Of a DNA stretch of 48,868 bases, positions 24,655 through 26,888 are shown in pieces. Source of the stretch: a virus; UHGV virus genome UHGV-0171424. One strand, written 5' to 3'. Every line of letters begins with the position of its first letter. The first letter of the stretch is position 1. The translations under genes and the position numbers were made by a program. A model generated the notes under the pieces. That model did not search any database. It worked only from the letters and a program-made list of their open reading frames with translations, and was not told where the DNA came from.

Positions 24655-24994
24655 TCTCGGTCACCGTTAATAATCCGTAGGAGGTCAACACGCTGGCGGT
24701 GACCGTATAAGTTTTGTTGTCGATGTCGAAATCGGTACTAAAACTGGTCAACTGCAGGACACCGGGAGTACCGGAGATACGTTCACGGAGGCGTGCTTCG
24801 CGGACATCCATAGAAGTTTGTTTGTTGAGTATCTCCTGAAACCACGGTGTACCGTCGGTCACATCCCGGAAATACTCACCCAGAAACAGACGCAGACGAG
24901 TACGTATTGTCTGTTCTATTTCCAGTTGTTCGGTGATGAACATCGAACCCTGGGTAACGATGTCACCATCTTCATCTAATTTACGTACTGTCAT
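24647..24994 (-). CDS. baseplate wedge protein, gp25/GPW-like
   Basis: 115 aa (P2 gpW is 115 aa); conserved position between the spike and J. Confidence 0.55.
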   Translation of the reverse strand: MTVRKLDEDGDIVTQGSMFITEQLEIEQTIRTRLRLFLGEYFRDVTDGTPWFQEILNKQTSMDVREARLRERISGTPGVLQLTSFSTDFDIDNKTYTVTASVLTSYGLLTVTENG

Positions 24995-25668
24995 TAGTTA
25001 TTCGGCCCCGTATTAGAACCACCGGAAGCAACGCCGCCATGAGTGTGACCATTGAGTTCTTTACCATCCAGCACCAGAGAGTTCAGTGCGGTGATGTTCC
25101 CGTCTTTATCAATGGTCACACCATTGATACTCACTGTGCCGTTTGCAAGAAGTTGGACGTTGCCGTTCCCATTAGCCATTATGCACGAACCATCACCCTT
25201 TAACCAGACGTGCTGTGACGCGTCGGCATTGCGCAAGCGTATCCCATCGTTAGAAAAACTTGCAATCAGGTTATCAAGTGAACGGATTCCCGGTACAAAC
25301 ATTGCGTCCTGTTTGTGATGAAAGCGTTTGACGGGATTAGCAGCAATGCCGCCAGTCTGCTTCCATCCATCAATGCAACGTTGACTGAAATGTACCATAC
25401 CCTCACAACCCGGATTGACGGCGAATTCCAGTACGAAGTCATCGCCCGGAAAACTTACAGGAACGTCCACAATGGGTGGTGGGTCGAACGTAGTTTTAGC
25501 GACATCATCGGTCCGGGTGATTCCCAGTTGAATCTGCGCACGTTGGGTATCCGGGTCGAACGTCAGCACGTAACCCGGGATACACGTGTACACGTCCTTC
25601 ATGTTCTCGAAAAACGTGTCATTGGTGACGTTCTGTAAAAACGAGCGGCGCTGGTTAATGTCGGTCAT
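24994..25668 (-). CDS. baseplate central spike protein (P2 gpV / Mu gp45-like)
   Basis: C-terminal spike-like NGTVSINGVTIDKDGNITALN...GHTHGG; strong RBS AGGAGGG upstream of the ATG at 25668; the track start at 25710 is a GTG over-extension into the promoter. Confidence 0.6.
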   Translation of the reverse strand: MTDINQRRSFLQNVTNDTFFENMKDVYTCIPGYVLTFDPDTQRAQIQLGITRTDDVAKTTFDPPPIVDVPVSFPGDDFVLEFAVNPGCEGMVHFSQRCIDGWKQTGGIAANPVKRFHHKQDAMFVPGIRSLDNLIASFSNDGIRLRNADASQHVWLKGDGSCIMANGNGNVQLLANGTVSINGVTIDKDGNITALNSLVLDGKELNGHTHGGVASGGSNTGPNN

Positions 25669-25703
25669 GTCGCCCTCCTGTGAAAATAATGTCAAGTATA
25701 CTA

Positions 25704-25732
25704 TTGACACTCACGTCAAACAATGTAATTAT
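25704..25732 (+). promoter_or_regulatory. palindromic promoter (TTGACA-ctca-CGTCAA, N7, AATTAT) antisense within the baseplate operon
   Basis: TTGACA at 25704-25709, CGTCAA at 25714-25719; only instance with no downstream ORF. Confidence 0.5.
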
Positions 25733-25739
25733 TTATTCA

Positions 25740-26239
25740 CAGGCATATAGCACATGTGTCTTTAGCGGTCCGGGGTGTCCTATTCCTTCGCATCAGCGGG
25801 TAGCCGGAATGTGTAGCCAGGCATGCACGAATACGGTTGGTCACCGTGGCGGTTCGACCAATACAACAGGTAAGGGTGTTTAGGCTACTAAGAAATCATC
25901 CGAGGCAATCAGACCTATCTTCTGTTAAGTGCCCTTTCCTGTTGTAACCCCCGAGGAGGTGGTCAACATCTTGCTGACGGGCAAGCCGTAAGTGACTGGA
26001 GTAATGTTGTGAAACATAACAACAGTTGCGACGATGGTTTAGAGTTGTGGTGAATACGTAGGTCGATACGTTAGAGACGGCACCCCTTGATGAGGACAGC
26101 GCTATCTCTGGAGAATAGTCTTGGGTACGTGTGATGCCAGAGAAAGCCGGAGTTCGACACCGGCCACCACAACTGTAAACCATAATCTCTCTGTTGTGCT
26201 CCTGCATGTTTGCCCCGGTCTCCGGGGCTTTTTTTTTTT
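25740..26239 (+). ncRNA. candidate ~500-nt non-coding RNA / structured transcript (unknown family)
   Basis: 569-bp gap in the minus-strand operon with no credible ORF on either strand; bounded by a plus-strand palindromic promoter and a strong plus-strand terminator; GC-rich helical segments. Confidence 0.45.
26212..26239 (+). terminator. strong rho-independent terminator (plus strand only)
   Basis: GCCCCGG-tct-CCGGGGC hairpin followed by T11; on the minus strand it is an A-run then hairpin, so not a minus-strand terminator. Confidence 0.8.
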
Positions 26240-26888
26240 ACAAATCCAAAAGTGTCGTAACCTGGCTGGCAACATTCGTTGCGGCTGTCTTCACATTGAT
26301 GTAACCACGCTCAATCAGTCCGGATATGGATGTGCTGGAAACGTCGTTACTGTTCAACTGATACTGTGCCGGTTGTGAACCGTTTGCCACGCGGTCAAGC
26401 GTGACAATCTGCTGCAGTTCAGCAACAAATATCAGTCCGTTCTCATTCTCCGGGTCTTTAGAGCGCCCGATACGCTGGATGACCATATTGTTCAGCGTGA
26501 TTTCACCCGTATCCACCGTGAATACCTGTCCGGAGTACATGAAATCGAGCAAAGTGTTCAGTGTTGTACTGGAGCGGGTTTCATTTGAGCCGCTCAACCA
26601 CCCCGCGAACAGACCAGCACCTACGGCAGTAAACGGATTGTCATCGACGAGATTTGTCAACGCCCCGGTGAAATCGGTGATACTGACTTTCAACGGGTTG
26701 TTCGATACCGCACCCGTCATCGTGTAACGAATAGGCTGATAGATAATGTGGTCCGCAATTGGTGCACCTGTCTCAATGGGGTATTGCACGATGTCCACAC
26801 TGGCATCAAGGTCATCAGACAGGACAGCATCGAACTGAAGCGACCCAAGCTGTGGGCCGCGCTTTACCAGAAGGTTAATTAAACTCAT
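26238..26888 (-). CDS. baseplate protein (Mu gp44/P-like, putative)
   Basis: 216 aa; conserved position between the N-like gene and the spike gene. Confidence 0.45.
   Translation of the reverse strand: MSLINLLVKRGPQLGSLQFDAVLSDDLDASVDIVQYPIETGAPIADHIIYQPIRYTMTGAVSNNPLKVSITDFTGALTNLVDDNPFTAVGAGLFAGWLSGSNETRSSTTLNTLLDFMYSGQVFTVDTGEITLNNMVIQRIGRSKDPENENGLIFVAELQQIVTLDRVANGSQPAQYQLNSNDVSSTSISGLIERGYINVKTAATNVASQVTTLLDL

Follow-up and report, generated by a model that had tools for sequence, protein, structure and literature searches.

A predicted cassette of small structured RNAs in the baseplate operon of a Jedunavirus-type Klebsiella phage, built of modules that recur in unrelated phages and prophages

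The viral genome UHGV-0171424, a stretch of 48,868 nt that was analyzed as a whole (hereafter the window), approximates a complete genome of a Jedunavirus-type Klebsiella myophage. Between two of its minus-strand genes (24994-25668 and 26238-26888), both belonging to the baseplate operon and the former coding for the baseplate spike or 'puncturing' protein, lies a 569-nt gap (25669-26237) that is poor in open reading frames (ORFs); the region of this gap is 98.6% identical to its counterpart in phage RCIP0055. A first-pass annotation had placed here a plus-strand transcription unit of roughly 500 nt, delimited by a promoter and a terminator and antisense to the surrounding operon, and had put it forward as a candidate for one large structured non-coding RNA. 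The gene coordinates confirm the antisense position, and our scans, together with conservation in relatives, bear out an ORF-poor plus-strand unit between promoter and terminator. The unit is real, but comparative sequence analysis predicts that it is by nature a cassette of small structured RNAs and not one large RNA (Table 1).

The cassette opens with a sigma-70-type promoter whose hexamers agree with the consensus at 10 of 12 positions and whose -35 element lies amid inverted half-sites. The hexamer score alone does not rise above chance (4 sites against 3.7 expected in a 3-kb region, with about 16 sites of equal score in the whole window). Among the 32 non-redundant relatives displayed, the -35 element and the half-sites TGTCAA/TTGACA/GTCAA are near-invariant despite the changing cargo downstream, and the -10 element shows point changes only. 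The half-sites may constitute an operator for a phage or host regulator, and transcription is predicted to start near 25739-25740. At the opposite end, a scan of the whole window for perfect-stem hairpins with at least four G/C in the stem, followed by at least five T, returned the terminator of the cassette as the sole plus-strand match and as the strongest of both strands, just as the first-pass annotation had held. Its T tract shares positions with the stop codon of gene 26238-26888 on the minus strand. Read on the minus strand the hairpin has no U tract, and hence read-through by minus-strand transcription is plausible. A hairpin with a T tract is present in all relatives, three of which have a different hairpin, and the core of the CU-rich tail, UCUCUCUGU, is kept ahead of the terminator even in relatives with another terminator.

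Table 1. Predicted features of the gap cassette, in window coordinates
Feature	Coordinates	Strand	Constituent elements	Basis
Sigma-70-type promoter	25691..25732	+	-35 TTGACA (25704-25709); 17-nt spacer; -10 AATTAT ending at 25732, with TG upstream (TG-extended -10 TGTAATTAT, 25724-25732); inverted half-sites TGTCAA (25691-25696), TTGACA and GTCAA (25715-25719)	promoter scan; conservation in relatives
M1, leader RNA	25740..25862	+	5' hairpin GGCAUAU-AGCAC-AUGUGUC (25742-25760); conserved blocks UUAGCGGUCCGGGG and GGUAGCCGGAAUGUG (25799-25813); 3' hairpin GGUC-ACCGUGGCGGUUC-GACC	recurrence; compensatory changes in both hairpins
M2, long hairpin	25863..25945	+	base stem ACAACAGGUAAG / CUUUCCUGUUGU; interior of about 50 nt	recurrence; upper-stem covariation
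M3	25946..26034	+	purine-rich, extended Shine-Dalgarno-like GAGGAGGUGGUC (25953-25964); UUG start and 6-codon mini-ORF MLTGKP-stop (25971-25991); GNRA hairpin AUGUU-GUGA-AACAU (26004-26017)	recurrence; invariant block; hairpin covariation
M4, tRNA-shaped RNA	26036..26181	+	P1 GUUGUGGUG (26044-26052) with CACCACAAC (26165-26173), extended in the window by GGUUUAGAG/UGUAAACC; junction AAU; P2 ACGUA-GGUCGA-UACGU (26056-26071); 74-nt insert (26072-26145); P4 GCCGG-AGUUCGACA-CCGGC (26146-26164); loop-loop kiss GUCGA (26062-26066) with UCGAC (26154-26158)	variant folds; pair counts; loop-loop covariation
CU-rich unpaired 3' tail	26182..26211	+	AUAAUCUCUCUGUUGUGCUCCUGCAUGUUU	conservation; weak Rfam matches
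Intrinsic terminator	26212..26239	+	stem GCCCCGG (26212-26218); loop TCT; return CCGGGGC (26222-26228); T11 (26229-26239)	GCCCCGG-UCU-CCGGGGC + U11

We looked for a conserved protein-coding ORF in the gap and found none: the four longer ORFs, including one of 103 aa on the minus strand (25896-26207), returned zero Pfam matches, and none is conserved across relatives, because that DNA is missing from most of them. A scan of 25600-26300 against Rfam, at the gathering threshold and at E<=10, recovered no family, in particular no transfer RNA (tRNA), transfer-messenger RNA (tmRNA), YrlA, intron or STnc100 match. The only hits were weak, sub-threshold and terminator-driven ones to terminator-type small RNAs (sRNAs; ncS54 and anti-hemB), which fall on the 3' tail. 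ARAGORN in its tRNA and tmRNA modes, the relaxed -ps setting included, found 0 genes in the window and no tRNA in the gaps of all 33 relatives considered below; at an 80% score cut-off it made one spurious 90-nt call over M3. For the folding energy of the gap, the z-score is -3.0 (plus strand) and -3.9 (minus strand).

A comparison of 33 non-redundant versions of the gap, drawn from IMG/VR, metagenomes and GenBank, revealed a slot with constant ends and exchangeable cargo. Its length ranges from 287 to 1007 nt, with blocks gained or lost cleanly between the promoter and terminator ends. In the window the cargo consists of the modules M1, M2, M3 and M4 followed by the CU-rich tail; the commonest relatives hold only M1, a short hairpin, the tail and the terminator, in a gap of about 288 nt. 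M1 is kept in most Jedunavirus gaps, minimal ones included, and M3 is missing from most. In Klebsiella phage BUCT_49532 (locus L002, 2150-2731), an ORF for a 193-aa HNH endonuclease replaces M1 and M2 behind the shared promoter, over a stretch equivalent to 25739-25955 of the window, and M3, M4, the tail and the terminator come after it. Thus, the slot can also hold a protein gene. The earlier suggestion that the gap might be a degenerate intron or a mobile-element remnant found no support: no Rfam intron matched, and a tblastn comparison of the BUCT_49532 HNH protein with the gap gave a best E-value of 2.5.

Nor is the RNA unique to this phage, as its parts recur widely. When the gap was compared by BLAST with phage genomes, segments of it matched phages that otherwise share nothing with the window. 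All modules have counterparts in unrelated phages and prophages (P1, Stx2 phages, D3, Taipeivirus and N4-like phages among them), often next to tRNA genes and then always on their strand, and each can also be found alone in an unrelated phage. The core of M4 was detected by a pattern scan in at least 120 IMG/VR viral contigs, and it is present in 224 phage records (P1, P7, D3, Stx2 phages, HK633 and mEp460 among them) and in 1354 of 5426 complete Escherichia coli genomes, where it resides both in chromosomes and in plasmids (about 70-106 kb), of which at least one is P1-like. At the 30 E. coli places listed, it coincides with no annotated feature save one 'hypothetical protein' and one unrelated tRNA-Gly. 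An exact 23-mer of this core recurs in 102 species genomes, mostly of Gamma- and Betaproteobacteria, as well as in two Alphaproteobacteria and a few metagenome-assembled genomes assigned to other phyla; in 93 of the 102 the 3' core is present too, many of these with compensatory changes in helix P4. A literature search using the core sequences as text found no paper. A survey of 2023 listed some 10,000 predicted candidates for structured RNAs of viruses, tRNA-like ones among them.

The genomic contexts of these modules are diverse. We observed M4 in a lambdoid Klebsiella prophage after the Q gene and four tRNAs and before the holin gene. In P1 and P1-like plasmids, the C1-controlled ban operon displays, in order, a promoter/operator, a dicF-like region, tRNA-Asn and tRNA-Thr, three to four M2-M4 units, tciABC, tRNA-Ile, M1 and then ban. 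Opposite the M2-M4 array, the P1 sequence AF234173 (locus L462, 854-1423) carries the minus-strand ORFs 'plp' (a putative lipoprotein) and 'upl', which may be mis-annotated RNA genes. The RefSeq annotation of a P1-like plasmid has no coding sequence at this array. An E. coli prophage shows the order early promoter, M1, M2-type hairpin, M4, another hairpin and yfdP. The same E. coli prophage has, upstream of its repressor region, an isrK sRNA match of 60 bits (threshold 50; locus L196, 26-102, minus strand). Two further genomes, siphophage- or myophage-like, resemble the window in having plus-strand RNA islands within minus-strand tail clusters, namely Bas81 (L073, 2001-2683), with M2, tRNA-Ser and tRNA-Arg, and Citrobacter phage K1M (L356, 540-900), with a promoter, M3 and a small ORF. 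In phiWec188, M2 stands directly after tRNA-Thr inside a tRNA cluster and on the tRNA strand; both there and in a P1-like plasmid, modules begin a few nucleotides after the 3' (CCA) end of a tRNA. Taken by sequence comparison, M1-M4 are predicted members of widespread and mostly unannotated RNA families of phages and prophages, situated in or beside tRNA clusters and in early and late operon leaders.

These patterns bear directly on the proposal of a single non-coding RNA of about 500 nt, either folded as one unit or serving mainly as a cis-antisense partner that would pair with the minus-strand tail mRNA to steer its cleavage or regulation. Such an RNA would suit the presence of one promoter and one terminator, the fold more stable than that of shuffles (z = -3.0), the probable read-through of minus-strand transcription across a one-directional terminator and the similar islands in the tail clusters of Bas81 and Citrobacter phage K1M. 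However, modules are gained and lost independently among near-identical phages, the commonest form lacking M2, M3 and the interior of M4, and elsewhere they stand with no opposing tail mRNA, as in the P1 ban operon, lambdoid operon leaders and tRNA clusters. Since the modules vary independently in relatives and occur alone elsewhere, the cargo is a set of separable units and not one RNA; and since the same modules stand in other genomic contexts, cis-antisense pairing cannot be their main role. Hence, we regard a single or chiefly antisense RNA as unlikely.

The module with the richest comparative record is M4, all variants of which share one fold: a closing stem P1, an AAU junction, a hairpin P2 of 5 bp with the loop GGCUGA or GGUCGA, an insert, and a hairpin P4 of 5 bp with a 9-nt loop, which adjoins the 3' strand of P1. 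Among the inserts there are at least 96 distinct sequences, with lengths from 6 to 175 nt. Over 26044-26173 the window carries the GUGGUG/CACCAC P1, the AAU, the GGYYGA loop of P2 and the complementary P2 and P4 loops by which the family is defined. A covariance model of M4 (R1) matched its two halves with E of about 1e-4 each, the window sequence being part of the training alignment. Pairing was counted over 84 distinct cores with the insert removed, using slid partners and shuffles as controls; the IMG/VR samples had been drawn with sequence patterns, the one for M4 having its 3' half fixed by the pattern. Standard pairs fill 94% of cells, against 28-51% with the partners slid, and both sides have changed in 16 of 24 pairs, compared to 5.8 in shuffles, a value that 0 of 500 shuffles reached. 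P1 columns 3-9 with 52-58 show at least 87% standard pairs (at least 96% for columns 4-9) and P4 shows 100%, so that P1 is reliably paired over 7 bp and P4 over 5 bp, with zero nucleotides between them. A sample anchored on the 5' half of M4 uncovered compensatory P4 variants such as GCCUG/CAGGC, GCAGG/CCUGC, GUAGG/CCUAC and GUCGG/CCGAC. The two types of loop-loop kiss are never mixed: all 7 cores with GUCGA have UCGAC, whereas none of the cores with a GCUGA-type loop does, nearly all of these having UCAGC or a one-base variant. Covariation support for M4 is strong; with that found in M1, M2 and M3 across homologous phages, it backs the first-pass claim of a structured non-coding RNA. One of two sequences singled out there as GC-rich helices, GCCGGAGTTCGACACCGGC, is indeed a helix, corresponding to hairpin P4 of M4, while the other, CCCCCGAGGAGGTGG, is instead the Shine-Dalgarno-like start of M3.

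The asymmetry between G-U and A-C cells (41 versus 14 in M4, 150 versus 48 in M2), the orientation of promoter and terminator, and the fact that all tRNAs near M4 loci are co-oriented with them (18 of 18) together assign the RNA to the plus strand. Though the window is free of tRNAs, a dedicated promoter and terminator are kept for its modules. The same evidence weighs on the notion that the gap acts at the level of DNA, as an origin of replication, as a site of packaging or an end of the genome, or as a region bound by a regulatory protein. Its attraction lies in the inverted half-sites that flank the -35 element and in the linearization of several GenBank Jedunavirus records inside the gap. 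The records of JD001, vB_KleM_KB2, KLPPOU148 and 1611E-K2-1 begin or end within it, probably by a convention taken over from JD001, a physical genome end here being still conceivable. Conversely, GC skew across the window has no inflection at the gap, the excess of G-U over A-C cells, like the loop-loop covariation, points to plus-strand single-stranded RNA, and the modules are internal in many other phages; a DNA element is thus a hardly credible explanation.

The covariation likewise counsels against viewing the gap as non-functional debris, that is, a hotspot of decayed tRNA genes, recombination scars and homing-endonuclease insertions. One could cite for it the high variability of the content, the HNH endonuclease gene in the slot of BUCT_49532, the T-arm-like hairpins in some M2-type interiors and the ties of the modules to tRNA clusters. 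Yet decay would hardly leave an exact 23-mer shared by three proteobacterial classes, four helices and a loop-loop contact with compensatory changes, and a dedicated promoter and terminator in every relative, and accordingly we give this explanation little credence.

Downstream of the promoter, M1 displays an A-U to G-C compensatory change in its first hairpin and the compensatory series GGUC/GACC, AACC/GGUU and CACC/GGUG in its second. It matches at least 120 IMG/VR contigs and 79 phage records, including those of Stx2 phages, P1, P7 and phiV10. Several prophages have it directly after early promoters, and P1 has it directly before ban; an M2-type stem lies downstream in 100 of 119 M1 loci and the M4 core in 46 of 119. 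A put-type antiterminator as in HK022 was considered as the identity of M1 or M4 and set aside, as HK022 is absent from the match lists of both; for M1 it is still a conceivable idea. The HK022 record does not annotate put.

M2 likewise couples a constant frame to exchangeable content, its base stem being conserved and its interior replaceable. Interiors of the type seen in the window recur with 90-96% identity in Taipeivirus (about 160 kb), Phapecoctavirus, the N4-like Gamaleyavirus, Bas81 and others, and other Jedunaviruses have unrelated interiors inside the same stem. In the upper stem, 73.6% of cells are paired, compared to 50% in shuffles, with variants such as GGG/CCC, GAG/CUC, GAA/UUC and many more. 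T-arm-like hairpins occur in 4 of 136 M2-type interiors versus 0.1 expected. We rejected the idea that these interiors are tRNA fragments, given that such hairpins mark a small minority and that anticodon-like loops are not enriched. The 5' strand of M2, CAGGUAAGGGUG (25866-25877), presumably recurs unchanged over 12 nt in the RNase P RNA of E. coli (…AUCAGGUAAGGGUGAAAGG…), maybe by coincidence.

M3 combines features of a translation start with those of a folded RNA. Its GNRA hairpin covaries (ACGUA/UACGU versus AUGUU/AACAU), and apart from Jedunavirus relatives it matches 43 IMG/VR contigs. Other phages have it directly upstream of small ORFs, while in the window only M4 follows. In prophage versions AGGAGGUGAUCC takes the place of GAGGAGGUGGUC, and we take it to be a 12-nt complement of the 3' end of 16S rRNA. 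A Lys-Pro-stop context slows termination. M3 may hence be a translated, ribosome-binding or ribosome-stalling leader element. Were the product of the gap a small protein, either that of the M3 mini-ORF with its very strong ribosome-binding site or an unrecognized micro-protein, one would point to the extended Shine-Dalgarno-like sequence (in prophages matching up to 12 nt of the complement of the 16S rRNA 3' end) located 8-10 nt before a conserved UUG, to the Lys-Pro-stop ending of the ORF, and to the sole substitution in the window, GGU to GGC, which is synonymous. But the 26-nt block containing the frame shows no change at any third codon position, not even in homologs of about 77% identity, which implies constraint at the level of RNA; moreover, M3 is missing from most Jedunavirus gaps, and the remaining ORFs are unconserved and without a Pfam match. 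A small protein, which would explain one module at best, is therefore very unlikely to account for the gap.

With regard to known RNAs, M4 has a geometric parallel in the tRNA fold. Both have a coaxial stack of 7 bp and 5 bp in which the T stem directly adjoins the 3' strand of the closing stem, a D-like hairpin (P2 in M4) after a 3-nt connector, and a loop-loop contact at the elbow; the modules also share location and orientation beside tRNA genes. In contrast to a canonical tRNA, M4 has a T-like loop of 9 nt without the T-loop motif, its CCA ends are inconsistent, and the insert takes the place of the anticodon and variable arms. Unrelated structured hairpins make up most of the inserts, and in some units a 6-nt linker is all there is; hence we consider M4 to be tRNA-shaped but not a decoding tRNA. 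The insert in the window contains no anticodon stem-loop, and its P4 loop has 9 nt instead of 7. A hairpin resembling an anticodon arm is found somewhere in 7 of 96 inserts, at the tRNA position only in a Lys-UUU-like subfamily. The candidate view of M4 as a set of unusual decoding tRNAs with different anticodons was dropped, since that subfamily is the only one with such an arm and some units are armless. Among the M4 units L076, L077, L180 and L183 and the loci L196 (2700-2790) and L195 (2740-2800), some units have hairpins that copy tRNA anticodon arms. One type, GCGGA-CUUUUAA-UCCGU, is of the Lys-UUU kind, and another, GGG-CUCAUAA-CCC or GGGGUCAUAUCCC, resembles initiator tRNA in combining a CAU anticodon with G-C pairs. 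Anticodon-arm-like hairpins of this kind could mimic the targets of anticodon nucleases.

The closest known family is that of STnc100 (RF02076) and PasD, which are prophage-encoded in Salmonella and pathogenic E. coli and whose expression as sRNAs has been observed by experiment. PasD, a reported relative of STnc100, is bound by Hfq according to RIL-seq (a method that ligates and sequences interacting RNAs) and was validated by northern blot; STnc100, located 75 nt downstream of stx2, has been found in vesicles. The Rfam consensus of STnc100 reads caUGGUG-AAUC-hairpin (5 bp, 6-nt loop)-variable middle-CCGGG AGGCA CCCGG-CACCAug. It has in common with M4 the 7-bp closing stem including UGGUG, the A-A-U junction, the UGGUGAAU motif, two flanking hairpins around a variable center with the last hairpin abutting the closing stem, and the niche, namely prophage late regions near Q, holin or stx. 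Furthermore, the last, variant unit of a P1-like plasmid array, which holds the position of an M4 unit, scores 39.2 bits with the STnc100 model (gathering threshold 47). The two nevertheless differ in the sequences of their hairpins and in the last loop (9 nt in M4, 5 in STnc100), only M4 has the 5-bp loop-loop kiss, and M4 is spread far more widely, reaching virulent phages as well as Gamma-, Beta- and some Alphaproteobacteria. As the STnc100 model scores neither the window nor canonical M4 units and the M4 model gives no score to the STnc100-like unit, we keep the two apart and treat M4 as a putative sister family of STnc100, distinct and much more widespread, and not as a member.

Other comparisons place the cassette among further RNA systems. 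The tRNA mimics, such as the tRNA-like domain of tmRNA, the bacterial Y-RNA-like YrlA and viral 3' tRNA-like structures, are handled by tRNA enzymes. M4 shares with them the idea of keeping the acceptor/T-arm stack and the elbow while another domain replaces the anticodon arm, but it has no tag reading frame and no Ro-binding stem and does not lie at a genome 3' end. Multi-RNA phage operons, like P1 ban and those with tRNA-cluster RNAs, parallel the proposed cassette in producing several small RNAs, freed by processing, from one transcript with tRNAs; the P1 ban operon itself holds M2-M4 units and M1, whereas the cassette of the window has no tRNA or protein gene. The stable RNAs C and D of the T4 tRNA cluster may resemble the cassette in this respect.

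We therefore consider it likely that the gap is a self-contained, protein-free plus-strand cassette which yields small folded RNAs acting on host machinery. From its host-type sigma-70 promoter, a precursor of about 490 nt would extend to the strong intrinsic terminator, forming a string of independently folding modules: the M1 leader, M2, M3, M4 and the CU-rich tail. As the promoter is consensus-like, this precursor would be transcribed early by the host RNA polymerase, after which host nucleases (RNase P, E and III) might cut it into stable small RNAs, as happens with tRNA precursors and dicF-type transcripts. The products would then act in trans on conserved host machinery, in one of two ways. 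They could be scaffolded base-pairing sRNAs like STnc100/PasD, or else tRNA-like decoys for tRNA-binding factors, for instance tRNA-cleaving or tRNA-targeting defenses. The terminator with U11 and the conserved CU-rich stretch present in the window match the layout of Hfq-dependent terminator-type sRNAs, and the tail may be the seed region of a terminator-linked base-pairing small RNA. That the M4 core is so extremely conserved across host classes speaks for a conserved host partner, and the hypervariable insert, together with the fast turnover of modules among near-identical phages, suggests a role in specificity or in an arms race.

Several observations weigh against this proposal. The tRNA, tmRNA and STnc100 models do not recognize M4: the STnc100 model has no match in the window at E<=10, nor on the canonical M4 units in 20 loci, and the STnc100-like unit in the P1-like array is in turn missed by the M4 model R1. 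Because the models fail both ways, the link between the two families is drawn from a shared architecture and an 8-nt motif. A tRNA is located within 1.5 kb of just 18 of 120 M4 loci; NCCA directly follows P1 in 13 of 111 M4 units, where it is not distinctive because the flanks are A/C-rich, and a 3' CCA is not consistent. The insert subfamily with a Lys-UUU-type anticodon stem-loop and a long extra arm is the only such subfamily. Pattern-based sampling from IMG/VR hides variation at the fixed positions. Finally, no module is universal among the relatives, and hence no single essential function is implied.

Beyond the cassette itself, one may tentatively entertain the possibility that phages of Proteobacteria share an unrecognized class of tRNA-shaped 'display scaffold' RNAs, in which the constant part would hijack the tRNA-processing or tRNA-binding machinery of the host and the hypervariable insert would confer a specificity of its own on each copy. 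Under this speculative extension, M4 and M1-M3 would be swapped as cassettes between unrelated phages, with the insert functioning, for instance, as a decoy for defense nucleases that target tRNA or as a programmable regulator. It is conceivable too, if doubtful at present, that plp and upl of P1, as well as many 'hypothetical proteins', would really be RNA genes.

More distant relatives of the flanking genes (loci L031, L037 and L039; 43-55% protein identity) have no non-coding gap and are uninformative for the comparison, since their gene order differs and the gap is missing. Their order is a 216-aa protein, a 100-aa protein, a hub or lytic transglycosylase and then the spike, and L037 has an additional 191-aa gene ahead of the spike gene.

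If these proposals are true, a very common type of phage and prophage DNA would be neither spacer nor a source of small 'hypothetical proteins' but an array of RNA genes, one carried by P1, Shiga-toxin phages, therapeutic Klebsiella phages and roughly a quarter of complete E. coli genomes. The window would then offer the cleanest natural test case, being a stand-alone cassette in an engineerable virulent phage for which natural variants with other sets of modules exist, and it would provide a handle on the function of the STnc100/PasD group. It would also be a natural example of the 'tRNA scaffold' principle from RNA engineering, with a bearing on the annotation of therapy phages and possibly on the conflicts over tRNA between phages and their hosts.

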